Positions 34,045 to 47,634 are shown, counted from the stretch's first letter. The stretch is 64,000 bases of DNA from Tepidiformaceae bacterium (GCA_965247675.1 OZ252025.1:2525153-2589152); one strand, 5' to 3'. Notes: generated by a model not told the origin, from the letters alone. Translations and numbers: made by a program.

Positions 34045-35349
34045 CTACTCGGGCGCGGGCCGGGCGGCGAAGAGGCCAAGAAGGCCCCGGGTCCCCGGAA
34101 ACGCTTCATCGAGCCCAACAACCTCGTGAACGCTTCGCGTCTCCAGGTCCACGAGGACCGTGGCGCGCATGGGCCCGCAGGCGTCTATTCCCAACAGCCC
34201 CACGAAGAGCTCCCCACCCAGGTGATCTATCAGCTCAAGAGGCTTCGGGTCTTCCCATGAATACGCCCCCAGAATCACGCCCTGTTCATTGATGGTGAAG
34301 AAACGATCGGGCTCGATCGGCGGATACCCGCGGTGCGTGCTCCACAGGAGAGTGCCGCCAGGCAAACTGACCGTTGGCCACCAGAACGAGCCCGAGGCGG
34401 TGACTTCGCCCCCGGGAGGCTTGCCCAAGAGACCGCCAGATGCATCCACGAAAGACGTATTCGGATTGTCCGACCAGCGTGGACGGTCCGACCAGACCGG
34501 ATTTAGTCCGTCCCCGCTAACTCGCCATGCCGCCATATATGGGGAATCAAGCCCTTCTGGAGGCGTCAGTTGTTCGCCCGAGCGGAACCACCATGCCCGT
34601 CTCAACTCCTCCTGCCCGGAACTCACCTTGCGGGCGAACAGGGCCACATCATCGTCCGTGACGGCAAGAATTTGCACCGACGCCCCAACAACCGGGACCT
34701 CACCCCACGTCTCCCACGTCTCCCACGTCTCGCCGCCATCCTCCGACACCCAGAGCGCCGAGACGGCATGCCCGTCCGGTCCATCGATCGTCCAGCAGAA
34801 TCCACGTTCACACCGCAGGGCCGCCAAGGTCTGGCCGCTCGCGCTCACCCCATAGACCACCACATCCGCGCCGGGATGAGACTGCTCGTCGAAGAAGGAC
34901 AGCGGGCGGTCGACCCGGAACTGGGCTGCGTCCGCTTGGGCAATGACTCTGTGCGTGTCCCAAGCACCCTCGCAGTGGTGTTCCAGGTAGTACAACGCCA
35001 TCCCCGCCGGCAGCGCCCGGGGCTCGCCCATGGTGAGCGGCAGGTACTCAGTGGCGGGCGGCGGCGTGGGAGTTGCCGTCGGTTCGGGCGCCGGGGCCGG
35101 GGTCGGTTCCGGCGAGTGAGTGGCAGTGGCAGCGGGCGAAGGGGTGGGGGTGGGAACGGGTGTGGGGGTGGCGGTGACAGTGGACGCAGCGGTCGGGGTG
35201 GCCGTCGGCGAAGGTTCCGGCGATTCGGTGGCGGTGGGGGACTGATGCGCCGGACCCGGGGCGGGAGGGATCGTCTCGCCGCCGCACGCCGCCGCTGCGA
35301 GGGTGAGCAGGCAGGCGAACAGCACGAGAAAGGCACGGGCCCGACGCAT
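34045..35349 (-). CDS. Lipoprotein with a Pro/Thr-rich linker and an Asp-box (BNR-like) containing globular domain
   Basis: Lipobox LTLAAAACGG and ~80 aa of PT-rich linker. SEDGGETW matches the SxDxGxTW Asp-box. No specific family recognised. Confidence 0.75.
   Translation of the reverse strand: MRRARAFLVLFACLLTLAAAACGGETIPPAPGPAHQSPTATESPEPSPTATPTAASTVTATPTPVPTPTPSPAATATHSPEPTPAPAPEPTATPTPPPATEYLPLTMGEPRALPAGMALYYLEHHCEGAWDTHRVIAQADAAQFRVDRPLSFFDEQSHPGADVVVYGVSASGQTLAALRCERGFCWTIDGPDGHAVSALWVSEDGGETWETWETWGEVPVVGASVQILAVTDDDVALFARKVSSGQEELRRAWWFRSGEQLTPPEGLDSPYMAAWRVSGDGLNPVWSDRPRWSDNPNTSFVDASGGLLGKPPGGEVTASGSFWWPTVSLPGGTLLWSTHRGYPPIEPDRFFTINEQGVILGAYSWEDPKPLELIDHLGGELFVGLLGIDACGPMRATVLVDLETRSVHEVVGLDEAFPGTRGLLGLFAARPAPE
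34705..34731. repeat. 9-bp tandem repeat x3 (CCACGTCTC) encoding ETWETWETW directly after the Asp-box
   Basis: Three exact units at 34705-34713, 34714-34722 and 34723-34731. Confidence 0.8.
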
Positions 35350-35358
35350 CAGGGCCTC

Positions 35359-35388
35359 ACCCTAGACGCGCGAGGGCCGAATTACCCC
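35359..35388 (-). promoter_or_regulatory. Bipartite upstream motif copy 5 (GGGGTAATTC, 14 nt, TAGGGT)
   Basis: TAATTC is the reverse complement of 35379-35384. TAGGGT is the reverse complement of 35359-35364, 9 nt before ATG 35349. Confidence 0.45.
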
Positions 35389-35467: not shown

Positions 35468-38400
35468 CTACTCCGTCCGCAACACCGCCGCGTCGGACGT
35501 GCGCGCGAGGGCCCGGACCGTGGCCGCAAGAGCGATGGCGAAGACGGCCGCCACCACCGCCGCCCCGACCACGACGTAGGCCCAGTCCGTCTGCAGGACA
35601 AAGCCCGGTTCGACGGGCAGGCCCGCCTCCGTCACGTCGAGGAAGGAGAGCATGCGCCGCCCCACGAACTGCCCCACAAGCACGCCCGCGGCGATGCCCA
35701 CCACCCCCACGATGGCGTACTCCAGCCCCAGCACGGCCATCACCTGGCGCCGCGTCAGCCCGATCGCTCCAAGTACGGCGAACTCGACGCGGCGACGCTG
35801 AATCGCCATCCACAGCGAGACCAGCAGCGCCACCGCCACCAGGACCAGCGTCGCCACGAACGAGACCGAGAGGATGCCCGTCCCGCTGGCCGCGATCAGC
35901 GGGTTCGAGCGCACCGAAGCGAGGGTCGCCTCCCGATCGACGACGCGGCGCAGGCCGAACCCGTCCAGCGCCTCCACGATGAGCTCGCGATCGGCGTCGG
36001 GCGCGAGGTCGAGCCAGACTTCGTTGGCGCGGGAGAGGGCGCCCGGGGCGGTGCTGACCATGTACCCCCAGCGCAGCAGCTGGTCGCGATTGAGCACGAC
36101 CGAGGGTCCTTTCAGCGCAGGCAACGTGGGGAAGCGCTCGTACACGCCGCGCACGACGATGGGCACGATGATGCCGTCGATCTCGATCAGGTCCTCATCG
36201 CCGATCGCCAGCCGGTTCTCCGACAGGAAGGACTCGCTCGCGAGGAGCGGCAGGGGGATGCCGCGGTCGGCCGGGAAGAGCCCCCGGCGCTCGCCCGTGG
36301 TGCCACGCCGGAAGCCAAGGCGGGCCGCCTGCGACCCCGTGCGCACCTCTTCACGGCTCAGCTGCAGGTTGTCGACATCCCGCTCGGCGCTGGGGACCGG
36401 CTCCCAGCGCACCACCCCCTCGAAGCCCTCCAGCAGGTTGAGGGTTCCGTCCGGGTCCACCGACGAGAGGTCGTCGATGTAGACGGGTTCGTTGCTCGCG
36501 TTGAACTGGTTGATCGGCTCCGTGAGGATGAGGGCGATCAGCGAGAGCGGCTCCACCAGGGGCCGGAAGCCGCCGCCCTCAATGGGCGCGCGCAGCTCGC
36601 GCCAGCCGCGGAAGTCGAGCTTCCCGAAGGGCAGCAGGCCGTGCCGGCCGGTGGCGTCGCGAACGCGCCCCCAGATCGTGACCGTGCTCCGATCGAGCGC
36701 CGGGTTCACCCACACGGAGAGCTCGGCCGAGCCCAGCGGGATGGGTATGCCCATCAGGATCTCGCCGCTGTCGACGCGGTCGAGGATGGCCGCGAGCGGA
36801 ACCTCGGCGAAGTCGTCGCGCCACCAGAGGAGGTCGCCGGCTTTCGCCGAGACGGCGAGCACCGCCACCTCCGGGCCGGAGCTGTTGGGCGTAGCGATCT
36901 CCCCGTCCAGACGCATGACGGCCAACCCCTCCTCCACGCCCTCGACGGCGGCCAGCGCGCCCTCGAGCTTGGCCGGGTCGGCGGGCAGGAAGGTGGCGTC
37001 GCCCGCGCTCGCGCGCAGCTCGACACCCGACACGAAGCGGGCGCGATCCTCGTAGGAGCGCTCGGTCGTGCTCGTGTAGCTGGCCGCGAAGATACCAACG
37101 GCCACGGCCATCATGAGGAGCAGGGCGAGCTGCGTGTACGGTCCCGGGCGCCGCACCAGCTGCCACAGCCCCATGACCACCGCCACCCCGGCCACGCGCC
37201 CCACCACCCGCACGATCACGCGCAGCACGATCGGGTAGAGCCGCGCCAGCACCGCCGCCGCCGCCGCGATGATCAGCGCCGGCGAGGCGAGCAGGAGCGG
37301 GTCGCTCGAGACACCCCCCGTGGCCGACGGCGTGTAGACCGAGTCGCGCTCGTTCAGCTCCCACAGGGCCAGCAGCGCGAATCCCACCAGCACGACATCG
37401 AGGTAGTAGCGCTGGAGGAAGCCGGCAGTGGGACGCGCCAGCGCGCGGCGCTGCCCCTGCGGCCCGCGCCGCGCCACCACGAAGGCGGGCGCCGTGAGCG
37501 CCACGATGGAGAGCAGGGCGCCGAGCGCCGCCAGCGGGAAGGCAAGTGGCTCGAAGGTGACCGGCAGCAGCTCGCCGCCGGAGATGTCGCTGAACACGGG
37601 CGTGAACCCGAGCAGGGCCGTCACCCCGCCGGCGATGAAGGGCGCCACCAGAATCGCGGGCAGGCCCAGGGCGAGCCCTTCCAGCGCGTAGAGCGCGACA
37701 ATCTGCGCCGTGCTCGACCCGCGCCCCCGCAGCAGCGCGATCTGCTCCCCCTGGCGCTCCACCACGGCCACCGAGATGAGGGCCACGTAGAAGAGCGCGA
37801 TGGCCGCGATCTGAACGAGCAGGATCGTCAGCGGCGCACGCTGGAAGTCCGCGCTCCGCCCGAAGGCAGCAAGCGTGACCGTGAGCGGGCTGGTGGCGTA
37901 GCCGCGGTAGACGCGCAGGTCCTGGTTGAGCCCGATGATGTCGGCCCGCGCCCGCTGGAAGTTGCCCTGGTCGAGCTGGTCGACGTCGGCGAAGACGTTC
38001 CAGCGAAGGATGAGGCGCTGGCCCGGGTAGCGCACGGCCAGGTCGCCGAGGAGGGCATCGACGTGCGCGACCATGGGCGCCACGAGCCCCGAGTCCGCCA
38101 GGGGCGCGCTCGGCATCACGTAGCGTCTGCTGACCGACGCCCAGAAGGAAGCGTCCTCGTTCTCGATCGAGATGAGGCCCGTGAGCACGGCGGGCACGCT
38201 GTAGCGCACGAACATCGTCAGGTCGCAGGGAAGCTGTGGCTGGAGGCCCTGCGGGATGATGCGGTCGCAGTTGTCGACCTCTTCGATGAGCAGGAAGCTG
38301 TCGCCCACCTGCAACCGCGCGAGGGCTGCGGCGCGCGGGCCCATCGCCACCTCGATCGGCCCGTCGGGGCCGGTTGGCACGGGCAGGCGCCCCTCCTCGA

Positions 38401-38818
38401 GCGACACATGCCGCTCGAATCCCTCAAGCGCGTAGAGCACACCCAGCGTGGTCCCGGCGCGCGGCTCCTCGCCTGTCTGCCCGACCGTGAGCCGCGCCGA
38501 CTCAACCACGACGGAGCGGCCAAGCGCGAACCAGCCGAGCCGCTCGTCGATGCGCCGCTCGACGGCCTCGCGCACGGCCAGGGAGTCGGGCGTGGCCAGC
38601 TGCTGCGCCTCGATGCCGGCGCGGATGGAGGGCTCGCCGCGGAGCTCGTCGCGCACGGTGAACTTGAGGCCGAGGTCGGCCATGGCGCGCGCGTAGATGG
38701 GCGCGCTCGCCAGCAGCGTCGAGGCCACGAGCACGCCCAGCGTGAGCACGCCCAGCATGCGCCAGCTGGCCGCGCCGTGACGCAGCAGCAACCCCCAGAG
38801 GACGGCCAGGTTCCCCAT
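35468..38818 (-). CDS. Large ABC-transporter permease with two FtsX (MacB-type) domains
   Basis: 1116 aa. N-terminal TM helix, large extracytoplasmic domain and FtsX 3-TM bundle, with this arrangement repeated. Paralogous to 39792..43154. ATG 38818 lies 9 nt after TACCCT (reverse complement of 38828-38833). Confidence 0.85.
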   Translation of the reverse strand: MGNLAVLWGLLLRHGAASWRMLGVLTLGVLVASTLLASAPIYARAMADLGLKFTVRDELRGEPSIRAGIEAQQLATPDSLAVREAVERRIDERLGWFALGRSVVVESARLTVGQTGEEPRAGTTLGVLYALEGFERHVSLEEGRLPVPTGPDGPIEVAMGPRAAALARLQVGDSFLLIEEVDNCDRIIPQGLQPQLPCDLTMFVRYSVPAVLTGLISIENEDASFWASVSRRYVMPSAPLADSGLVAPMVAHVDALLGDLAVRYPGQRLILRWNVFADVDQLDQGNFQRARADIIGLNQDLRVYRGYATSPLTVTLAAFGRSADFQRAPLTILLVQIAAIALFYVALISVAVVERQGEQIALLRGRGSSTAQIVALYALEGLALGLPAILVAPFIAGGVTALLGFTPVFSDISGGELLPVTFEPLAFPLAALGALLSIVALTAPAFVVARRGPQGQRRALARPTAGFLQRYYLDVVLVGFALLALWELNERDSVYTPSATGGVSSDPLLLASPALIIAAAAAVLARLYPIVLRVIVRVVGRVAGVAVVMGLWQLVRRPGPYTQLALLLMMAVAVGIFAASYTSTTERSYEDRARFVSGVELRASAGDATFLPADPAKLEGALAAVEGVEEGLAVMRLDGEIATPNSSGPEVAVLAVSAKAGDLLWWRDDFAEVPLAAILDRVDSGEILMGIPIPLGSAELSVWVNPALDRSTVTIWGRVRDATGRHGLLPFGKLDFRGWRELRAPIEGGGFRPLVEPLSLIALILTEPINQFNASNEPVYIDDLSSVDPDGTLNLLEGFEGVVRWEPVPSAERDVDNLQLSREEVRTGSQAARLGFRRGTTGERRGLFPADRGIPLPLLASESFLSENRLAIGDEDLIEIDGIIVPIVVRGVYERFPTLPALKGPSVVLNRDQLLRWGYMVSTAPGALSRANEVWLDLAPDADRELIVEALDGFGLRRVVDREATLASVRSNPLIAASGTGILSVSFVATLVLVAVALLVSLWMAIQRRRVEFAVLGAIGLTRRQVMAVLGLEYAIVGVVGIAAGVLVGQFVGRRMLSFLDVTEAGLPVEPGFVLQTDWAYVVVGAAVVAAVFAIALAATVRALARTSDAAVLRTE

Positions 38819-38931
38819 GCGCGCACAAGGGTAGCGGTCTCAGGCCCCCACGCGCTCGCCCACCCCCACACCCTCCCCTGGCAACGGTTGTGCCGGCGGC
38901 GACGCTGGGCCTGCCGGTTGGTGCTGCTGCC

Positions 38932-38978
38932 CCCCATCGTTCTCCACCTTCGTGGTGAATGCGCGGGGGCTTCTTGGG
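38932..38978 (+). repeat. Intergenic repeat R1 (~46 bp)
   Basis: CCCCATCGTTCTCCACCTTCGTGGTGAATGCGCGGGGGCTTCTTGGG is about 75 percent identical to R2. It contains a small hairpin (CACC..GGTG). Confidence 0.6.
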
Positions 38979-39052
38979 CGGTCCCCAGCGAGTGTGACAT
39001 CGCCCCCCGACCCACCCCCAACCCCCCACATCCGCCAGCCCGGCGAGTACGC

Positions 39053-39082
39053 TTGACAAATTTTGCTGAAGCAAGGAATAAT
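39053..39082 (+). promoter_or_regulatory. Near-consensus sigma70 promoter (TTGACA, 18 nt, AATAAT) with an inverted repeat in the spacer
   Basis: TTGACA at 39053-39058 and AATAAT at 39077-39082. The spacer contains TTGCT-GA-AGCAA (39063-39074). It stands out as an AT-rich island. Confidence 0.55.
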
Positions 39083-39108
39083 GGGGCTTGCCCGATAGGG
39101 CGAATATT

Positions 39109-39154
39109 CCCCGTCGTTCTCCACCTCGGTGGAAAACTGGCGGGGGTTCTCTTG
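39109..39154 (+). repeat. Intergenic repeat R2 (~46 bp) in the putative 5' leader of the NYN gene
   Basis: CCCCGTCGTTCTCCACCTCGGTGGAAAACTGGCGGGGGTTCTCTTG. Hairpin TCCAC-CTCG-GTGGA. It ends 5 nt before ATG 39160. Confidence 0.6.
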
Positions 39155-39159
39155 TCACC

Positions 39160-39795
39160 ATGACCAACCGCATCGCCGTTTACATCGATGCCCAGAACTT
39201 TTATCAGGGCGCCCGGGCGCGCTTCTTTGCGCCAGGCGCTCCTCGACGCAGGGGGCAGATAACCCCGCTGGAGCTCGGCAGGCTTCTCTGTACCCGCCGC
39301 AGGAATCTTGTAGAGCGCACGCTTGAGCAGGTGCGCATCTACACCGGGCGCCCAGACCCGCTCAGGGACCCGAGGACTTACGCCGCCCACATGCGCCAGT
39401 GCCACACCTGGGAGCGTTCGGGCGCCGTCGTCATCACCCGGCCCCTCAGGTACCCGCGCGATTGGCCCCGGGCCCGCGCCCAGGAGAAGGGCATCGACGT
39501 GCAGCTCGCCATCGACTTCGTCGCCGGCGCCATCGACGACGCCTACGACACCGGCATCATCTGTTCGACCGACACCGACCTGCTCCCGGCGCTGGAGTTC
39601 GTCGCAACCCGCTACGGCCGCGAGCGCGCCGAGACCGCCGCCTGGCTCGCGGGCGGCAAGGGCAGCGAACTCCGCCTCAGGCGCCCTTCGACCTGGCGCC
39701 ACCGCCTGAGCTTCCCGACACTGAGGCCGTCCGCGACCCAACCGACGACGCGCGATAGCAGGGCGCTCTCCTGTACGCTGACGCGCACTCCATGA
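39160..39795 (+). CDS. NYN-domain (PIN-like, LabA/DUF88-type) putative ribonuclease
   Basis: MTNRIAVYIDAQNFYQGAR... and EKGIDVQLAIDFVAGAIDDAYDTGIICSTDTDLLPALEFV are the NYN acidic motifs. The stop overlaps the permease ATG (ATGA). TTG 39088 is an alternative start. The C-terminal ~30 aa may be frameshifted. Confidence 0.7.
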   Translation: MTNRIAVYIDAQNFYQGARARFFAPGAPRRRGQITPLELGRLLCTRRRNLVERTLEQVRIYTGRPDPLRDPRTYAAHMRQCHTWERSGAVVITRPLRYPRDWPRARAQEKGIDVQLAIDFVAGAIDDAYDTGIICSTDTDLLPALEFVATRYGRERAETAAWLAGGKGSELRLRRPSTWRHRLSFPTLRPSATQPTTRDSRALSCTLTRTP

Positions 39796-42700
39796 ACAGC
39801 TTCGCCTCGCTCCTGCGCATCATCGCCCAGCGAAGCCTCGCAAACTGGCGGCTGCTCGCCACCGTCATCTTCGGCATGGTGCTCGCAGCCGCCCTCATGT
39901 CGAGCGTCATCCTCTACGCCGACGCCGTGCGCGACCTCGGCCTCAGCTTCACCCTGCGCCAGCAGGAACCGCTCGACCTCGACCTCAAGGTAGTCAGCAA
40001 CAGCCAGCCCGCCGAGCCCGCCATCTACCTGGAGCGCCGCAACGCGACGTTGGACCTCCTCCGCCGCTACGGCGGCGGGCTCATCGAGGGGACCGGCGTC
40101 TACGGGCGTACCTCCACCTTCTTCCTGACCGACCCCGGCCAGCCCGTCGAGAAGGAGGACGACCTGCGCGCCCGCGCCCATTTCCTCTTCTTCTCCGACG
40201 TCAGCGCCCACGTCACGCTCGTCGAGGGCGCCCCCGCCGCCCCCTCGCCCGCCACCACCGACCCCACCCGACGCCCCAGCATCGAGGTCTGGCTCAGCGC
40301 AACCGCCGCCCGCCAGCTCGGCGTCGCCCCCGGCGAGACGTTCGACGTCCACCCCTTCTGGCGCGACGACGTGGACCCCGTCGAGATCACGATCGTCGGT
40401 CTGATCGAGCCCAACGACCCGTCCGAGGACTACTGGTTCGGCAACGCCCACCGCCTGGTCGTCGGCAAGACGCGCTGGCCCACGTACCCGTTCGTCATCG
40501 ACGAACGCACCCTCGTCGAGGTTATCGCCCCCTACCTGCCCTCGATCGACGGCACCTTCGAGACCTTCGCATTCGTCGACAGCAACCGCGTCAACAGCCG
40601 CAACGCCGAGCAGGTCGAGCTCAACCTGCGCGCCCTCGAGAGGGCCGTGCGCGCCCAGCTGGAGCTGTCCTCGCTCAGCTCGGAGCTGCCGGACGTGATC
40701 TCCGAGTACCAGGAGAAGCTGTTCTTCACGCGGTTGCCCCTCTTCGCGCTCATGCTGCTCATCGTGGGCATCGCCCTGTACTACCTGGTGCTGGTCTCGA
40801 CGATGCTGGTGGAGCGCCAGACGGGCGAGATCGCGCTCCTCAAGAGCCGCGGCGCCGGCCTCGGCCAGATCATGACCGTCTACCTGATCGAAGGGCTGGC
40901 GCTCACCGTCTTCGCCGTCGTCCTGGGACCGCTGCTGGCCTCGGGCATGATCCGCCTGCTCGGTCCCACGCCGCCGTTCGCCGACCTGAGCCAGGGCGAA
41001 CTGCTGCAGGTCACCCTCACGCCGGAGGCGTTCGGCCTGGCCGCGCTGGGGGCGGCGCTCGCCCTCGCCGCCCTGCTCTGGCCCGCCTACCGCGCCTCCG
41101 AGGCGACCATGGTGCACTACAAGCAGAGCCTCGCCCGCCCCGACCGGCAGCCTCTCTTCCTGCGCTACTACCTCGATCTCGTGCTCATCGGCGTGGGCGC
41201 GTTCCTCTTCTACCAGCTGCGCCAGCGAGGCTCGCTCGTGACCGAGAACCTCTTCGGCGACCTCTCCGCCGACCCCCTCCTGCTCGTCTCCCCCGCGCTC
41301 TTCATGCTCATGATCGCGCTCGTCTTCCTGCGGCTCTTCCCGGTTGTGCTGCGGGTGGCCTCGTGGGCGCTGCGCGGGCTGAGCGGGGCGACAATCCTGC
41401 TCGGGCTCTGGCGCATGGTGCGAAGCCCCCTCCACTACAGCCGCCTCATCCTCCTGCTCCTGCTGGCGACCTCCGTGGGCATGTTCGCCGCCGGCTTCCG
41501 CGCCACGCTCGACCGCAGCTTCGAGGACCGCGCCGCCTATGAGGCCGGCGCCGCCGCCCGGCTCGTCGATATCCGCTCTCCCTCCCGCCTCTCGCCCGCG
41601 CGCCTCGAACAGACGATCGAGTCGATCGACGGGCTCGACGGCGCCAGCGCCGCCGCCCGAATCGAGGTGGCCTACTCCCCCCTCACCGGACGCTCGGTCC
41701 AGGCCGAACTCCTCGGCGTGGGCGAGAACTTCTCCGACGTGGCCTACTGGCGAAACGATTTCGGCGGCGACCTCGACGCGCTGCTCGCCGATCTCCAGCC
41801 CGAGGCGGAGGCGGACCTGCCCGACGGCGCTCTCATCCCCGCGGGCTCACGCGCCATCGGCATCTGGACGCGCATCTCCCTGCCCCCAACCGCCGCCCGG
41901 CCCGGCGTGCGCCTGCGGGACGAGAACGGCCTCTTCTACGAGTACATCTTCGCGACCGACGCCGTCGATGAGGACGACGGCTGGCTCCTCTACGTCGCCG
42001 ACCTTACCCGTCCCTTCAGCCCTCGCAACAACGGCCCCCCCCTCGACGCCACCCTGGAGGTCGAATCCGTCTTCCTCAGCGTGCGCCGCTACGCCGCCGC
42101 CCCTGGACGCATCGCGGGCGTCCTCGACCACCTCGTCGCCTACCCCGAGGGCGGCGGGCGCGACAGCGCCGTCGTGGTCGAGCCCTTCGAGTCGCTCGAC
42201 CGCTACCAGTCCATCACCGGCGCCTCTGGATCTGCGGAGACGACCATCACGCGAGCCGACGTCGACAACGCGCGCGGCCGCTACGCCGCCCAGATCACGT
42301 TCAACTACGACGCCTTCTCGACGAGCGCCGTGGGCCTGCGCCTGCGCCGCTCGCCCGCCCCCCTGCGCGTGCTCGCCAGCGAGTCGTTCCTGGAGGCCAC
42401 GGGCGCCAGTCCGGGCGACACCTTCCGCCTGCGGGTGAACCGCCAGGTGGTGCAAGCACAGATAACCGGCGCCTTCGAGCTCTTCCCCGGCTTCTACCCG
42501 GGCCCGCGCGACCACCTGCTGGTGGCCGACCTCGCCGCCCTCAGGGGGGCGGGCGCGGGGCTGCCGCGCATGGCCGGGGGCATCAACGCCAACGAGATCT
42601 GGCTGGGGGGCGTCGAGGGCGTCGAACTCACGACCGAGTGGCTCGAGGAGCAGGGCATCCGCGCCCGCTGGGTCTACGACGAGGGCGCCATCCTCGCCCT

Positions 42701-43154
42701 TGAGTCCTCCGACCCGCTCGTGGCCGCCAGCTGGGAGGGCATCCTCTTCCTCTCCTTCGGGGCGGTGCTGCTGCTCACCGCCCTCGGCTTCATCGTCTTC
42801 TCCTACCTGGCCGCGCAGACGCGCTCGCTGGAATTCGCCATTCTCCGCACGATGGGCTTCTCGGGACGGCAGATCGTGGGCGTCGTCGCCTTCGAGCAGC
42901 TCTTCGTGATCGTCGCGGGCGTGGCCGCGGGCACCGCCCTCGGTTTCCCCCTCGGACGCCTCATGATCGGCGCCCTCGCCCTCACCGAGGACGGCAGTGA
43001 CGTGGTGCCACCCCTGCTTTCGCAGGTAAGCTGGGAGACCGTGCTCTCCGTTTACGGCCTGCTGGCCCTCGTCTTCATCGCCACCGTGGCCGCCCTCACG
43101 CGGCTCTACTCGCGGCTGGCCCTGCACCGCGCCCTGCGCATCGGCGAGCTTTAG
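39792..43154 (+). CDS. Large ABC-transporter permease with two FtsX (MacB-type) domains
   Basis: 1120 aa with the same architecture as 35468..38818. N-termini align: WRLLATVIFGMVLAAALMSSVILYADAVRDLGLSF versus WRMLGVLTLGVLVASTLLASAPIYARAMADLGLKF. Confidence 0.85.
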   Translation: MNSFASLLRIIAQRSLANWRLLATVIFGMVLAAALMSSVILYADAVRDLGLSFTLRQQEPLDLDLKVVSNSQPAEPAIYLERRNATLDLLRRYGGGLIEGTGVYGRTSTFFLTDPGQPVEKEDDLRARAHFLFFSDVSAHVTLVEGAPAAPSPATTDPTRRPSIEVWLSATAARQLGVAPGETFDVHPFWRDDVDPVEITIVGLIEPNDPSEDYWFGNAHRLVVGKTRWPTYPFVIDERTLVEVIAPYLPSIDGTFETFAFVDSNRVNSRNAEQVELNLRALERAVRAQLELSSLSSELPDVISEYQEKLFFTRLPLFALMLLIVGIALYYLVLVSTMLVERQTGEIALLKSRGAGLGQIMTVYLIEGLALTVFAVVLGPLLASGMIRLLGPTPPFADLSQGELLQVTLTPEAFGLAALGAALALAALLWPAYRASEATMVHYKQSLARPDRQPLFLRYYLDLVLIGVGAFLFYQLRQRGSLVTENLFGDLSADPLLLVSPALFMLMIALVFLRLFPVVLRVASWALRGLSGATILLGLWRMVRSPLHYSRLILLLLLATSVGMFAAGFRATLDRSFEDRAAYEAGAAARLVDIRSPSRLSPARLEQTIESIDGLDGASAAARIEVAYSPLTGRSVQAELLGVGENFSDVAYWRNDFGGDLDALLADLQPEAEADLPDGALIPAGSRAIGIWTRISLPPTAARPGVRLRDENGLFYEYIFATDAVDEDDGWLLYVADLTRPFSPRNNGPPLDATLEVESVFLSVRRYAAAPGRIAGVLDHLVAYPEGGGRDSAVVVEPFESLDRYQSITGASGSAETTITRADVDNARGRYAAQITFNYDAFSTSAVGLRLRRSPAPLRVLASESFLEATGASPGDTFRLRVNRQVVQAQITGAFELFPGFYPGPRDHLLVADLAALRGAGAGLPRMAGGINANEIWLGGVEGVELTTEWLEEQGIRARWVYDEGAILALESSDPLVAASWEGILFLSFGAVLLLTALGFIVFSYLAAQTRSLEFAILRTMGFSGRQIVGVVAFEQLFVIVAGVAAGTALGFPLGRLMIGALALTEDGSDVVPPLLSQVSWETVLSVYGLLALVFIATVAALTRLYSRLALHRALRIGEL

Positions 43155-43162
43155 GACACCGC

Positions 43163-44080
43163 ATGACTACCTTTCTCGACACCGAGACCGAGGCGCCTCC
43201 CTACATCCTCTGCGAGGACCTCTTCAAGATTCACAAGAGCGAGGACCTCGAGGTCGTCGCCCTGCGCGGCCTCGACCTGAAGGTCCGCGGGGGCGAGCTG
43301 ATGGCCATCGTCGGCGCCTCCGGCTCGGGCAAGAGCACCCTGCTCAACATCCTCGCCGGGCTCGACCAGCCCAGCGCCGGGCGCGCCTTCGTGGGCGGAC
43401 GCGACCTGCTCACCCTGACCGAGCCCGAGATGGTGCGTTACCGCCGCAGCTCCGTCGGCTTCATCTGGCAGCAGACCGGCCGCAACCTCATCCCCTACCT
43501 GACCGCCACCCAGAACGTCGAGCTGCCCCTCATGCTCGATGGCGTCGAGTCGCGCGCCGCCCGCGCGCGCGCCAACGAGCTCCTCGAGGCGGTCAGCCTG
43601 GGCCACCGCCACGACCACCACCCCGAGCAGCTCTCGGGCGGCGAGCAGCAGCGCGTCTCCATCGCCGTGGCGCTCGCCAACCGCCCGCCCCTGCTCCTGG
43701 CCGACGAGCCCACCGGCGAGCTCGATGCTATCGGCGCCGACAGCGTCTACGAGGTCCTCGGCGACCTGAACGCGCGCTACGGCGTCACCATCATCATCGT
43801 CACCCACGACCCCGAAATCGCCTCCCGCGTCGACCGCGTCGTCGCCATTCGCGACGGCCGCACGAGCATGGAGATCTTCCGCCGCGTGGAGAAGACGGGC
43901 GGCGTCACCCACGTCGTGCACGACGAGTACGTGCTCGTCGATTCCGCCGGCCGCCTGCAGGTGCCGCGCGAATTCCTCGACCGGCTCAGCATCCGCGAGC
44001 GGGCCAAGCTCTTCCTGGGCGATGGCCGCGTCGAGGTGCTGCCCGACACCGTTCGCCGCGTGCCCGTGGAGGAAAGCTGA
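43163..44080 (+). CDS. ABC transporter ATP-binding protein (MacB/LolD type) with a C-terminal AbrB/SpoVT-like extension
   Basis: Walker [10 protein letters not shown], signature LSGGEQQRV and Walker [13 protein letters not shown]. The tail [38 protein letters not shown] resembles a swapped-hairpin domain. Confidence 0.88.
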
Positions 44081-44958
44081 TGGCCGGCGCTTCGGTCGAG
44101 CTACGCAACGTCTCCCGCCGCTTCCAGCTCGGGTCGGAGGAGGTGTGGGCCGTTCGCGGCGTCACCCTCTCCATCGAGCCGGGCGAGTTCCTCGCCCTGA
44201 TCGGACGCTCCGGCTCCGGCAAGACGACCCTGCTCAACACCATCGCCGGGCTCGACCGCCCCACCGCCGGCGAGGTCGAGATCGACGGGGTGCGCGTCGA
44301 CACGATGCGCGAGTCCGAGCTGATTTCGCTGCGCCGCCAGAAGCTGGGCTTCATCTTCCAGTCGTTCGGATTGCTGCCCCTCCTCTCCGCCCAGGAAAAC
44401 GTGGAGCTACCCCTGCGCATCGCCGGCGTGCAGCGCGCACGCCCCGCCCGCGCCCGCGAGGTGCTGGAGCTGGTGGGGCTCGAACGGCGCGCCCACCACC
44501 GCCCCTACGAGCTCTCCGGAGGCGAGCAGCAGCGCGTCGCCATCGCCCGCGCGCTCGTCACCGAACCCACCCTCGTGCTCGCCGACGAGCCCACCGGCGA
44601 ACTCGACTCCGCCACCGCCACCGCCGTCTTCACCCTCATCCGCGACATCTGTCGCGAGCGCGGCGTCACCATCATCACCTGCACGCACGACCGCCTCGTG
44701 ATGGAGATGGCCAGCCGCGTCGAGGAACTGGAGGACGGCCGCCTCGCCACGGGCCACAAGGGCGATGTCTGGGGACGGGTGCAGTCGCGCGAACGCACCC
44801 CCTTCGAAGCGCCCGAGGGCGAGAGCCAGGAGAGCCAGTCGCTCCCCTCCCTCATCGGCGCCGACACCCGCAACTTCGGTCCCCGCGAGCCCGAGCCCAG
44901 GCCGGAGCCAGAGGAAGTCGAGGACATCCCCGAGGGCCGCTGGTCCCGGCCGGAGTAG
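44080..44958 (+). CDS. ABC transporter ATP-binding protein (MacB/LolD type) with an acidic disordered tail
   Basis: Walker A GRSGSGKTT, signature [15 protein letters not shown] and Walker [13 protein letters not shown]. The start overlaps the upstream stop (TGATG). Confidence 0.9.
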   Translation: MAGASVELRNVSRRFQLGSEEVWAVRGVTLSIEPGEFLALIGRSGSGKTTLLNTIAGLDRPTAGEVEIDGVRVDTMRESELISLRRQKLGFIFQSFGLLPLLSAQENVELPLRIAGVQRARPARAREVLELVGLERRAHHRPYELSGGEQQRVAIARALVTEPTLVLADEPTGELDSATATAVFTLIRDICRERGVTIITCTHDRLVMEMASRVEELEDGRLATGHKGDVWGRVQSRERTPFEAPEGESQESQSLPSLIGADTRNFGPREPEPRPEPEEVEDIPEGRWSRPE

Positions 44959-44992: not shown

Positions 44993-45367
44993 ATGCAAAC
45001 CGTTGACTACCTGGAGCTCCCATACCACCGCATCATCCAGCCGGGTGAGGGCGGCTACTGGTCCGCCCACGTGCTGGAGCTCGACGGCGTGTTCAGCGAG
45101 GGTGGGAGCGCTGCCGAAGCGGCCGAGAACCTGAACCTCGCGATGGGCCTCTGGATCGACCACGAGCTCGCAGAGGGCCACCCCATCCCCCAGCCCTGGG
45201 GTGCCGACCGCTCCGGCGACATCCGCCTGCGCCTGCCTCGATCGCTGCACGCCAATGCAGCCCTGCGGGCCAAGATCGAAGGGGTCTCACTCAACTACCT
45301 GATCGCTACTGCCCTCACGGCCTATCTCTCCCAACCAGTGGCGGCAGGCGAAGCCGCCAACCGATAG
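44993..45367 (+). CDS. hicB: HicB-family antitoxin (HicB N-domain + RHH-like C-terminus), no HicA adjacent
   Basis: YHRIIQPGEGGYWSAHVLELDGVFSEGGSAAEAAENLNLAMGLWIDHELAEGHPIPQP followed by RLRLPRSLHANAALRAKIEGVSLNYLIATAL. ATG lies 9 nt after TACGGT. Confidence 0.8.
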   Translation: MQTVDYLELPYHRIIQPGEGGYWSAHVLELDGVFSEGGSAAEAAENLNLAMGLWIDHELAEGHPIPQPWGADRSGDIRLRLPRSLHANAALRAKIEGVSLNYLIATALTAYLSQPVAAGEAANR

Positions 45368-45374
45368 CCTTCGC

Positions 45375-45707
45375 TCAGGGCGGGGGTAGCACAACCGCCA
45401 CCTGCCGACCGTCGTCGCCCAGTTCCCGCTTCAGGTAGAGGCACGCCGCCGCCAGCGAGTCCACCCGGGCAGTCCCGACGAGCTCCCACCCCTCTGCCCC
45501 AAGCGTCCCGAGGATCCACGTCGTGTGAACCTTCTCAGGGTCGAAGTGAATGGAGGTCGGGGTCTGGCTCGTGGCTCGGTCGGCGTGGAGCCCGAGGCTG
45601 GCCGCATCCTGCTCGTGGCTGAACAGAATCCAACCCCGCGCCGGCTTCTCGTCGGCGATGTACAGCAGCGCGTACTCCCACTTCACCGGCCGCATGCTAT
45701 CCGCCAC
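45375..45707 (-). CDS. Hypothetical small protein (DUF4177-like WEY...GAEGWELVG pattern)
   Basis: 110-aa ORF. GTG 45707 lies 8 nt after TAGAGT of motif copy 6. ATG 45695 is an alternative start. Confidence 0.45.
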   Translation of the reverse strand: MADSMRPVKWEYALLYIADEKPARGWILFSHEQDAASLGLHADRATSQTPTSIHFDPEKVHTTWILGTLGAEGWELVGTARVDSLAAACLYLKRELGDDGRQVAVVLPPP

Positions 45708-45715
45708 ATGGTTTC

Positions 45716-45745
45716 ACTCTAGCGACCCCCCGACCGAATTACCCC
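45716..45745 (-). promoter_or_regulatory. Bipartite upstream motif copy 6 (GGGGTAATTC, 14 nt, TAGAGT)
   Basis: TAATTC is the reverse complement of 45736-45741. TAGAGT is the reverse complement of 45716-45721. Confidence 0.45.
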
Positions 45746-45759
45746 ACCCGCTCAACCCC

Positions 45760-45893
45760 GCATCGCGAGCGCGCAGCAGTCGAGCGCAGACCTTAAAGCC
45801 CACCGCTCTCCTCCCCCCTCAGGCACGCATCGCGAGCGCGCAGCAGTCGCGCGCGGAGAACCTCGCGCGGCGCTCTCCTCCGGTACACTCTCC
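45760..45893 (+). repeat. Two tandem ~67-bp units, each containing the GCGAGCGCGCAGCAGNCGNGCGC motif also amplified at 23923-24300
   Basis: GCATCGCGAGCGCGCAGCAGTCG starts at 45760 and again at 45827. The second unit continues ..GCGCGGAGAAC, matching the 36-bp SDR repeat unit. It ends at the TACACT -10 (45884-45889). Confidence 0.75.
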
Positions 45894-45895
45894 CC

Positions 45896-46321
45896 ATGCC
45901 CGTTTTCCCTTCCACCGAGTGGTTCCAGGAGGCGGCCGACCGCCTCAACGCCTCCGACAGCTTCGACCGCCTCGGAAACTGCGACGCCGCCGTCGGCGTG
46001 CGCGTGGGCGACCGCTGCTTCGCCATCACCTTCGACGCGTTCGCTATCACCGACGTCGCCGAGGTGCCCTGCGACGCCCCGGGGGATCTCGACTTCACGC
46101 TGCTGCAGACGCCGGAGGCCTGGCGCGCGATGCTCGAGAACATCAAGGAGAACGGTCAGGCGGACGCACTCTTCACCCTCAACTCGCTCGACCTCTCGAC
46201 CTCCGACGGCCTCGCCACGGGCGAGGACTACCACCGCCGCGACCTCCTCTACCGCTACAACCAGACCTTCCAGGAATACTTCGACATATCCGCGGAGATG
46301 GACACGACCTTCGCGCCATGA
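45896..46321 (+). CDS. SCP2 (sterol-carrier-like) domain protein
   Basis: MPVFPSTEWFQEAADRLNAS... is the typical N-terminus of actinobacterial SCP2-domain proteins. ATG lies 6 nt after TACACT. The stop overlaps the next ATG (ATGA). Confidence 0.6.
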   Translation: MPVFPSTEWFQEAADRLNASDSFDRLGNCDAAVGVRVGDRCFAITFDAFAITDVAEVPCDAPGDLDFTLLQTPEAWRAMLENIKENGQADALFTLNSLDLSTSDGLATGEDYHRRDLLYRYNQTFQEYFDISAEMDTTFAP

Positions 46322-47634
46322 CCGCAACACCGCCCTTCCTCACGCGTGTTCGCATCAAGAACTACAAGAGCATCGCGGCATGCGATGTGAAGCTGGGGAA
46401 CCTGGCCTTTTTGGTCGGCCCCAACGGCTCCGGTAAGAGCAACTTCCTCGACGCCCTCCGCTTCGTAGCCGACGCGCTTGACGACTCGCCCAGCCCGATC
46501 GAGCCGGATCAGAATGTCGTGCACATCACGCCCGGGAAGGTTCCAGACACACCTCTGGGCCGCGCGCTCGAAGTCCGTGGAGGCATCCGCCTAGTTCACC
46601 AGCAGATGGGCCCACTCGGATTCTCCTTCGGGATCCGGCTTGACTTCCACACTCGGGACGGCCGGCGCGGCCACTACAGCCTGCAGATTGGCACGAACGA
46701 AGCGGCTCAGGTGAGGCAAGACGAGCCACAATTCACTGTCGAGCGAGAGGAATGCGACCTTGGCGGCGGTGCGTCCTTTTCCATCGACAAATCCACTGTT
46801 GATGGATTTCCGCCGCCCCCGTTCCCTCCCGACAAGTCGCTACCCTGCGTCGACCGCTCCGATCTCTATCTGCGAAGACTGGCCCTCGATCACGACAGCC
46901 CACCGACACTGTTGCCCTTCCGGGACGCTTACAGCGCCCTGGTTCGTATGCGTTCCTACAGCCCCAGGCCCGATTCGATGCGCAAGCCCCTAAAGCCAGA
47001 CGAGAAGGGGCTTTTGCAGCACGACGGCGAGAACATTTGGGCCGTGCTCCAGAACCTGCAGGCGGTCAGTCCAGACACGTTCAGCCAAATCGAGGATTAT
47101 CTGGAGCTTGTCGTCCCGGGTCTGTCACTTGAGCCGTTTCTCCTCAGCCCTACCGACGCCGCCTACGCGGAGTTTCACGAGGATGTCCCTGGCCGGACCT
47201 ATCCCAGAAAGCTCCCTGCGAGGTCGATGTCGGACGGCACCCTACGAGCCGTCGGAGCACTCACTGCCCTGTTTCAGGAGGACGAAGCCGGGCCGCCAAC
47301 ACTTGTGGCGATCGAGGAGCCTGAGACGGCCCTTCACCCTGCAGCCGTGGGTGTCCTTCTCGGGGCCATGCGCTCCGTCAGCGACCACACCCAGGTGCTT
47401 GTCACGACGCACTCGCCAGAGCTTCTTCACTCCGATGACGTGCGGACGGACGAACTGCTCGCCGTATCGGCAGAGACCGGCGTGACCGTGATCGGCGGCA
47501 TTGACGTAGGCTCCCGCGATATCCTGGCGGACCGGCTGTTCTCGCCTGGAGAGCTCTTGCGCCTCGACCAGCTCGAGCCGGACAGCGCCGCTCCTCCGGC
47601 TGCCTGCGACGAAAGCGACCTTTTCGAACTCTAG
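46318..47634 (+). CDS. AAA_15/AAA_21-type (ABC/SMC-like) ATPase
   Basis: In frame within ORF 45550..47634. RIKNYKSI...LVGPNGSGKSNFLDALRF (Walker A), MSDGTLRAVG, and LVAIEEPETALHP...VTTHSPELL (Walker B / D- and H-loops). Confidence 0.85.
   Translation: MTATPPFLTRVRIKNYKSIAACDVKLGNLAFLVGPNGSGKSNFLDALRFVADALDDSPSPIEPDQNVVHITPGKVPDTPLGRALEVRGGIRLVHQQMGPLGFSFGIRLDFHTRDGRRGHYSLQIGTNEAAQVRQDEPQFTVEREECDLGGGASFSIDKSTVDGFPPPPFPPDKSLPCVDRSDLYLRRLALDHDSPPTLLPFRDAYSALVRMRSYSPRPDSMRKPLKPDEKGLLQHDGENIWAVLQNLQAVSPDTFSQIEDYLELVVPGLSLEPFLLSPTDAAYAEFHEDVPGRTYPRKLPARSMSDGTLRAVGALTALFQEDEAGPPTLVAIEEPETALHPAAVGVLLGAMRSVSDHTQVLVTTHSPELLHSDDVRTDELLAVSAETGVTVIGGIDVGSRDILADRLFSPGELLRLDQLEPDSAAPPAACDESDLFEL

Follow-up and report, generated by a model that had tools for sequence, protein, structure and literature searches.

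The locus at positions 35468-44958 of a 64,000-nucleotide stretch of DNA from a Tepidiformaceae bacterium (GCA_965247675.1 OZ252025.1:2525153-2589152; the window, meaning that whole stretch) very probably combines two units whose adjacency is positional and not functional. One is a conserved ATP-binding cassette (ABC) machine encoded by two paralogous permease genes, perm1 and perm2, and two ATPase genes, atp1 and atp2. The other is a separate cassette, consisting of a leader RNA and a gene for a NYN ribonuclease, which occupies the divergent promoter region between the two permease genes. The host (Dehalococcoidia, Chloroflexota) is represented by a metagenome-assembled genome of 3.04 Mb in 8 contigs, called G000 below, and the window has a G+C content of ~70%. 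The comparisons drew on 28 genomes of the genus (27 others and that of the window) and on 37 fetched loci. The elements of the locus are listed here in the order of their positions.

35468-38818, minus strand: perm1, 1116 aa, two Pfam FtsX matches and 10 predicted transmembrane (TM) helices, divergent.
38819-38840, minus strand: perm1-side end of the ancestral spacer, GCGCGCACAAGGGTAGCGGTC, near-identical in at least 20 genus genomes with or without a NYN insert.
38908-38980, plus strand: second, degenerate copy of the NYN leader RNA, upstream of the main one (R1 covariance model: 32.1 bits, E 5e-6).
39053-39082, plus strand: predicted promoter of the NYN cassette, TTGACA-18 nt-AATAAT, with 11 of 12 consensus matches.
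39085-39157, plus strand: NYN leader RNA (R1, 85.2 bits, E 2e-19), ending 2 nt before the NYN ATG.
39160-39795, plus strand: NYN open reading frame (ORF) as read from its ATG at 39160, 211 aa, Pfam NYN (PF01936).
39759-39791, plus strand: perm2-side end of the ancestral spacer, GCGCTCTCCTGTACGCTG..., kept in genomes with and without NYN.
39792-43154, plus strand: perm2, 1120 aa, two Pfam FtsX matches.
43163-44080, plus strand: atp1, 305 aa, an ABC ATPase of the MacB/LolD/YbbA type.
44080-44958, plus strand: atp2, 292 aa, a second ABC ATPase of the MacB/LolD type.

An initial annotation of the window had read the plus-strand genes as a single operon, NYN-permease-ATPase-ATPase, with the nuclease embedded in it and translationally coupled to perm2. 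The spacings that it described, including a control region of ~340 bp, are present in the window: NYN and perm2 overlap by 4 nt, perm2 and atp1 are separated by 8 nt, atp1 and atp2 overlap by 1 nt, and the perm1-NYN spacer (38819-39159) is 341 bp long. The operon with its embedded nuclease did not hold up in related genomes, where the permease and ATPase genes and the NYN gene are distributed differently.

Genes of the perm1 and perm2 types are present in all 27 other genus genomes and in all 36 family (Tepidiformaceae) genomes, and they recur in 7 of the 24 other sampled families of the class. Across the fetched loci atp1-atp2 always follow perm2, and perm1 is usually divergent, being tandem in one genome (G041) and unlinked in two (G003 and G054). 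The start-to-start distance between the permeases is 73-130 nt in at least 15 genomes, which represents the ancestral spacer. Its ends are conserved, with GCGCGCACAAGGGTAGCGGTC next to perm1 and TAGCGCGGCGCTCTCCTGTACGCTG next to perm2, and the window keeps both, one on each side of the insert. The conserved unit is four genes, perm1 and, pointing away from it, perm2-atp1-atp2, without NYN; it is a core set of Tepidiformaceae.

The NYN gene lies between the permeases in 9 of the 28 genus genomes and at this site in none of the nine other genera of the family, so that the transporter is kept without it at the site in 19 genus genomes and in all other family genera. Orthologues that are 51-71% identical occur at unrelated sites in five genomes (G009, G012, G016, G029 and G037); the remaining genus genomes have no close orthologue and at most distant paralogues elsewhere. 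On a tree of perm2, atp1 and atp2, five strongly supported sister pairs are split by the presence of NYN (G010/G007, G026/G025, G005/G023, G019/G022 and G001/G014), and the spacer of G011 has kept two leader RNA elements with no detectable NYN. Among 80 NYN loci from GTDB species genomes, five are flanked by these permeases, all five from this genus, and the other 75 are nowhere near such permeases. The initial annotation had proposed this co-occurrence comparison and had itself named a lack of NYN conservation with the transporter in related genomes as grounds for abandoning its operon; the NYN gene is indeed not conserved with the transporter. A NYN protein acting as a functional operon member, coupled to perm2 in translation and regulating the transporter mRNA or sharing in a joint defence, would be in keeping with the 4-nt overlap of its ORF with the perm2 ATG, with the failure to find a terminator between the two genes and with the use of the same site in nine genus species. 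The phyletic pattern largely refutes it, sister species differ, and the promoter and leader of the NYN gene go with it wherever it is sited; we regard such a role as highly improbable.

The overlap has an origin of its own. The window NYN protein scores 37.4 bits against a Pfam cut-off of 24.2 and has all of the invariant acidic residues (D10, D113, D138 and D140), which places it among NYN/LabA-like proteins. Several hundred homologues were found, of ~200 aa, and they cover only the first 88% of the window ORF; in the alignment the conserved C-terminus (...TWCHRLE.xDYE.VRDPTDY) bears no relation to its final 28 residues. That C-terminus is encoded in another frame of the window, as ELPDTEAVRDPTDDAR followed by a TAG at 39756-39758. 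DNA alignment with two close relatives, L001 and L002 (the latter a closed 2.98-Mb genome), located a single missing G at ~39708 (CTGGAG to CTGAG), which shifts the frame after L183 and leaves the catalytic core intact. In these relatives, and in the shifted frame of the window, the protein ends ...ELPD(Y/T)E.VRDPTD(Y/D)AR, with its stop 33 nt before the perm2 ATG. The 4-nt overlap exists because of the 1-nt deletion, and the proposed translational coupling falls with it. The window also differs from the relatives at three near-invariant codons, with TGC to CGC (C180R), TAT to ACT (Y to T) and TAC to GAC (Y to D). Lesions are present in three of the nine inserted copies, namely the frameshift in G000, an in-frame stop in G001 and an 11-aa deletion in G024, which again speaks against a working part of the operon.

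The G024 copy (P0016 / L002:10001-10582) is a mosaic of an N-terminal half like that of another allele group and a C-terminal half nearly the same as in the lineage of the window; the 11-aa deletion lies in a conserved segment. This suggests recombination between alleles of the NYN cassette. Two further genomes show other contents at the same place. In G007 (L011) the NYN coding region has been swapped for another small ORF, with the same promoter remnant and 3' flank, and the spacer of G025 (L008) holds a different insert of 782 nt with an inverted repeat (CAGGGTGCTGA...TCAGCACCCTG), similar to a miniature inverted-repeat transposable element. The perm1-perm2 spacer has the look of a hot spot where small cargo inserts.

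Upstream of the NYN gene, a promoter scan of the spacer gave one near-consensus site (39053-39082), with 0.1 expected by chance. The leader that follows consists of a small GNRA-type hairpin, P1 (GCCC-GAUA-GGGC), a long hairpin (CCCCGUCGU...ACUGGCGGGG) and a U-rich run, and its 73 nt fold at -36.5 kcal/mol (z -4.6). When the covariance model R1, built from 13 leader copies, was run on the window genome, it found the two copies upstream of this NYN, one weak opposite-strand match beside a NYN paralogue and nothing else. Relatives have the promoter-plus-RNA unit ahead of each inserted NYN; in some there are two or three copies, and the second or third are better kept than the degenerate copy of the window at 38908-38980. 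R1 matches also lie directly upstream of the NYN genes at other chromosomal sites in G009, G012, G016, G029 and G037, and upstream of four distant NYN homologues in unrelated contexts. Of the 80 NYN loci, 71 have R1 upstream on the same strand, with a median gap of 15 nt between the end of the hit and the protein match; these loci belong to Chloroflexota, Dormibacterota and Actinomycetota (Streptomyces, Kitasatospora, Frankia, Geodermatophilus, Thermoleophilia and Acidimicrobiia).

The leader alignment (A5) has 92.9% of cells paired, compared with 36-55% when partners are slid, and compensatory changes in 13 of 17 pairs, counts that are somewhat inflated since the alignment was fitted to the model structure. 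The covariation score is 0.328, compared with 0.118 ± 0.007 in shuffles, and the frequent G-U pairs fit an RNA read on this strand. Hardly any sequence variation is seen in the lower stem and a 3' bulge, suggesting that a protein recognises the leader. The TTGACA/-10 pair is found at other Chloroflexota loci as well, where the -10 element ends 25-28 nt before the hairpin core and the leaders have an extra first hairpin; in many Actinomycetota the -10 element ends exactly 12 nt before the core, and the RNA there would begin a few nt before the hairpin. A U-rich run follows the hairpin even in genomes of 70% GC. Searches of Rfam 15 gave no relevant match on the window spacer at E up to 10 and none that reached gathering score on nine loci of three phyla, and a literature search turned up no publication that connects NYN/LabA genes with a leader RNA. 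The leader is an uncatalogued conserved RNA, not in Rfam 15.

Two other explanations of the hairpin were considered and set aside. It cannot be the terminator of the upstream gene, since at several loci, and in the window, that gene is divergent; a role as a DNA operator is unlikely, as G-U pairs are numerous and the matches are strand-specific. Leader copies without a detectable adjoining NYN are found in the G011 spacer (two copies, L020) and at G004:C1:1038161-1038235 and G015:C2:979757-979825. Beside a NYN paralogue that is 45-47% identical, in G000 (C1:716303-716364), G009 and G012 (L123 and L132), a weak R1 match lies ~110-190 nt upstream on the opposite strand; these matches are either a related element in reverse or an effect of the near-palindromic hairpin.

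Taken as a cassette, then, the insert would comprise a strong sigma-70-type promoter, a leader of ~70 nt and a gene for a LabA-type NYN ribonuclease, placed between two back-to-back core promoters of the machine. At this one site in the genus it would be present, mosaic, decayed or absent, and in the window genome it appears to be decaying. The hairpin and U-tract resemble an intrinsic terminator immediately ahead of the start codon. Most likely the leader holds down NYN expression, either by termination or by occlusion of the start site. The NYN protein itself probably recognises the leader, as an autoregulatory target or as an RNA antidote.

The same parts could be assembled into a system like the type III toxin-antitoxins, whose RNAs (in ToxIN, CptIN and TenpIN) are abutting 34-40-nt repeats. 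In such a system an abundant short hairpin RNA would end at the U-tract, rare read-through would make the NYN toxin, and the RNA would neutralise the toxin or be processed by it, for addiction or phage defence. A short RNA of this kind would be favoured by the fixed promoter distance, which would start the RNA 5-7 nt before the hairpin, by the U-rich tract conserved in GC-rich genomes, by the two to three tandem RNA copies of several genomes and by the NYN-less copies in G011, G004 and G015; the accessory, patchy and mosaic distribution of the cassette and the match of the NYN protein to the PADLOC HEC-09 model (E 1.6e-11) point the same way. However, most loci have a single copy that resembles an ordinary 5' leader, tandem copies lie 120-200 nt apart and do not abut as in ToxI, and the nuclease is a NYN protein unrelated to ToxN/AbiQ. 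Loss of the nuclease with retention of the RNA, as in G011, fits simple erosion too, and HEC-09 gave no protection against any phage tested (10.1101/2024.01.29.577857). We therefore judge a type III-like system to be rather unlikely, and retain the interpretation of the leader as a brake on NYN expression. No tested function for this LabA-type NYN subfamily was found in the literature.

The machine is documented in its gene set, its fold, its topology, its conservation and the fusion of its ATPases. The two permeases are 30% identical over their full length and are paralogues, and they have the same hydropathy plan of TM1, a first extracytoplasmic domain (ECD1, ~280 aa), TM2-4, a linker of TM5-6, TM7, a second domain (ECD2, ~400 aa) and TM8-10; ECD2 of perm2 carries an extra beta-rich insert. 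This bears out the description of two divergent, paralogous double-FtsX permeases of ~1100 aa with two large extracytoplasmic domains. An AlphaFold2 model of perm2 from a 37-sequence alignment (pLDDT, the predicted local distance difference test score, 81.5; predicted template modelling score 0.67), a structure prediction of the kind that the initial annotation had suggested for the extracytoplasmic domains, was used to search for similar structures with Foldseek. The top match in the PDB was E. coli YbbP over the full length (9ge6_A, E 2.8e-18), followed by BceB, MacB, LolC/E, HrtB and YtrF. Pfam, hydropathy and the AlphaFold2/Foldseek results agree on the FtsX four-helix module, whose first and second helices flank an extracytoplasmic domain, as in type VII ABC systems, and on a YbbAP-type plan of 10 helices, in which two FtsX modules are joined by two linker helices and the outer domains lie between TM1 and TM2 and between TM7 and TM8. 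Each permease is thus predicted to be a 10-helix pseudo-dimer with two large outward-facing domains, and the perm2 model has short helices, 344-352 and 1012-1020, at the positions of coupling helices.

On the minus strand, perm1 has a -10-like box, TACCCT, 9 nt before its ATG, and perm2 has one, TACGCT, 13 nt before its own; both are putative core promoters. A degenerate search of the window for a motif shared by the perm1 and perm2 upstream regions gave one site, no more than expected by chance. Just downstream of perm1 is a lipoprotein gene (34045-35349, minus strand) with a signal peptide, a lipobox and a long Pro/Thr linker, and a TAGGGT box lies in front of it (35350-35380, minus strand). 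All three genes have a TAnnnT box 9-13 nt before the start and lack a Shine-Dalgarno sequence, and this combination suggests that their mRNAs are leaderless or near-leaderless in this organism. In many genus genomes homologues of the lipoprotein (28-46% identical) border the ABC module at its perm1 or its atp2 end, and the protein is a possible extracytoplasmic partner, as a weak lead. That the dn434 lipoprotein forms a multi-copy family was rejected, as this genome has a single copy. PADLOC gave no match for the permease or for the hicB gene described below.

The two ATPases are 50% identical over the nucleotide-binding domain (NBD), and each has the Walker A, Q-loop, LSGGEQQR, Walker B-E and H-loop motifs. 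Their best partial NCBIfam matches, to LolD, MacB, YbbA and FtsE, place them in the MacB/LolD/FtsE subfamily. The AlphaFold2 model of atp1 (pLDDT 85) matched the MacB NBD in Foldseek with a TMt of 0.94 and 44% identity, and identities of its NBD to MacB, LolD and YbbA are 44-45%; matches of atp1 to defence ATPases in PADLOC are generic ABC-fold matches. The proteins differ after the NBD. The tail of atp1 (residues ~233-295) is beta-rich and conserved in orthologues and fusions, with the pattern E-Y-V-L-V-D-x-A-G-R-L-Q-I/V-P... and a GRLQVP motif, whereas the tail of atp2 is acidic and variable. Searched alone against Pfam, the atp1 tail had no AbrB/MazE match even at E up to 1, and Foldseek on the whole atp1 model was dominated by the NBD, so the AbrB-like reading of the tail is a resemblance of sequence pattern only.

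Natural fusions of atp1, including the tail, to atp2 form three protein clusters in other Chloroflexota (P0268, P0275 and P0283; 517-531 aa; one of them labelled Anaerolineales). Their halves are 56% and 50% identical to atp1 and atp2, respectively, and the tail serves as linker. At L163:3816-11596 two FtsX permease genes in tandem (products of 1089 and 917 aa) precede the fusion gene, which supports an atp1/atp2 heterodimer serving a two-permease system. The alternative is a pair of separate transporters, one permease working with an atp1 homodimer and the other with an atp2 homodimer. Two permeases and two ATPases would suit it, ATPase homodimers are found in BceAB and YbbAP, and the beta-rich tail, present in atp1 alone and with a GRLQVP motif like that of swapped-hairpin dimerisation domains, might favour atp1-atp1 pairing. 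Against this, the fusions join atp1 to atp2 in the same order in all three clusters, a single fusion serves a two-permease locus, the stop of atp1 overlaps the start of atp2, the two ATPase genes remain with perm2 where perm1 is unlinked (G003 and G054), and the tail lacks a Pfam AbrB match. We find two separate transporters improbable. The hetero-oligomeric, MacB-like machine proposed in the initial annotation is borne out by the conservation of the four genes as a set, by the YbbP/BceB/MacB/LolC/E fold and by the atp1-atp2 fusions.

A machine with a shared heterodimeric motor could work as follows. It would be a four-gene type VII (MacB/FtsX-class) ABC system with two paralogous YbbP-like permeases, and atp1 and atp2, each with its full set of catalytic motifs, would pair up as a heterodimeric motor. 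On the model of YbbA2:YbbP1, one atp1/atp2 pair would bind to each permease through the two coupling helices of the permease. The cycle of ATP binding and hydrolysis would set the extracytoplasmic domains in motion (mechanotransmission), with no path for a substrate through the membrane, extracting or handing over an envelope substrate or partner. For the stoichiometry, the mechanism and the substrate we infer from analogy with known systems.

Several points weigh against parts of this account of a machine and an unrelated cassette. Nine species have the cassette at one and the same site, and a local benefit is possible, for example as extra drive for perm2; the scan found no terminator between NYN and perm2, and read-through from the NYN promoter into perm2 is possible. 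The U-tract of the window itself is weak (UUCUCUUGU) and failed a simple terminator scan, and the leader pair counts carry the inflation noted above. An assembly error could account for the missing G, which falls within a run of GG; the three further changes at conserved residues speak against such an error without proving the point. On the side of the machine, the ATPase heterodimer would be carried over to this organism from fusions in distant relatives, and perm1 and perm2 may form either two alternative complexes or one super-complex.

Type VII ABC machines (Lol, FtsEX, MacB, BceAB and YbbAP) each have a distinct envelope job. To these the locus adds a variant that is core to the whole family, with two fused permeases and a putative heterodimeric, sometimes fused, motor, in a phylum whose envelope is poorly understood; for structural studies, the fusion proteins and conserved gene set provide a concrete construct. 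NYN ribonucleases of the LabA type occur widely, and the leader before ~90% of them is an experimental handle on their function, the more so as leader-bearing NYN genes are also found in culturable Streptomyces, Frankia and Geodermatophilus. A bolder view, which we hold only tentatively, is that the cassette is a new, phylum-spanning, RNA-controlled nuclease module, mobile and self-contained, with its short terminated RNA as antidote or decoy, and, separately, that the paired permeases with their heterodimeric motor form an essential envelope-building machine of Chloroflexota, of an eight-module architecture undescribed for type VII ABC systems. There is also a caution in method: a start/stop overlap seen in one genome can be a frameshift artefact, and the adjacency of genes within a divergent promoter can be an insertion.

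The genes downstream of the machine are as follows.

44993-45367, plus strand: orphan HicB-like gene (UPF0150 and ribbon-helix-helix), 124 aa (PF05534, E 4e-8).
45375-45707, minus strand: ORF of 110 aa between hicB and the ATPase cassette, with marginal Pfam matches (DUF4871, E 0.043; DUF4177, E 0.11).
45550-47634, plus strand: ORF of 694 aa, of which the first ~260 codons look like a high-GC artefact.

The hicB-like gene begins 34 nt after atp2 and holds this position in at least 10 genus genomes. Its HicB domain is present with no adjacent hicA: none was found in or near the window, and the five HicA matches of the genome all lie elsewhere, the nearest ~76 kb from hicB, in line with its earlier description as an orphan. 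Within the 45550-47634 ORF an AAA_21/AAA_15 ATPase begins near MTATPPFLTRVRIKNYKSI (~residue 257); relatives have separate genes at the equivalent place, then DUF4276 (L001).

Among known systems, the NYN gene is closest to the LabA-like NYN/HEC-09 proteins, with which it shares the NYN domain, the conserved acidic residues and a stand-alone length of ~200 aa; it differs from them in that the window copy is frameshifted, and the leader RNA appears in no published description found. HEC-09 itself showed no defence in the one reported test (10.1101/2024.01.29.577857). For the cassette as a whole, the leaders of RNase genes (rne, rnc and pnp) and the ToxIN/CptIN/TenpIN systems offer comparable arrangements, with a structured RNA and an element resembling a terminator lying downstream of a promoter and ahead of a ribonuclease gene, and type III RNA copies can be tandem. 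In contrast to type III systems, the nuclease here is from another family and the RNA forms one to three separate units.

The permeases and ATPases share with LolCDE, MacB and BceAB the FtsX fold, Porter/Sabre-like outer domains and ATPases of the LolD/MacB type. NCBIfam gave weak matches to LolC/LolE and strong partial matches to LolD/MacB, all far below the family cut-offs, and the locus does not qualify as LolCDE, with LolC/E scores of 32-45 bits compared with 362-540 and a LolD score of 222 compared with 308. LolCDE, moreover, pairs a single kind of ATPase with two permeases of 4 TM helices each, MacB is a homodimer of a chain that unites NBD and permease and works with an adaptor and an exit duct, and BceB has one large outer domain and partners a kinase.

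The closest system is E. coli YbbAP. YbbP is a 10-helix pseudo-dimer with outer domains between TM1 and TM2 and between TM7 and TM8 and two coupling helices; its partners are two copies of YbbA and one of the periplasmic TesA, and its mode of action is mechanotransmission (PMC12646458; PDB 9GE6/9GE7/9GE8). As in that system, each permease here is a single 10-TM chain in which TM5-6 join two FtsX modules, YbbP is the best fold match for perm2, and YbbA, of the MacB/LolD type, is 45% identical to atp1. In contrast to the YbbA homodimer, the locus has two distinct ATPases, fused in some relatives, and two paralogous permeases; these are ~300 aa longer than YbbP, with outer domains of ~280 and ~400 aa and an insert in ECD2, sequence identity to YbbP is only 14%, and the host belongs to Chloroflexota. 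No TesA-like gene was identified in the locus. Since two permease and two ATPase genes are conserved as a set, the ATPases are fused in relatives and the locus has no TesA-like gene, the machine is best described as a variant of YbbAP and not as its orthologue.

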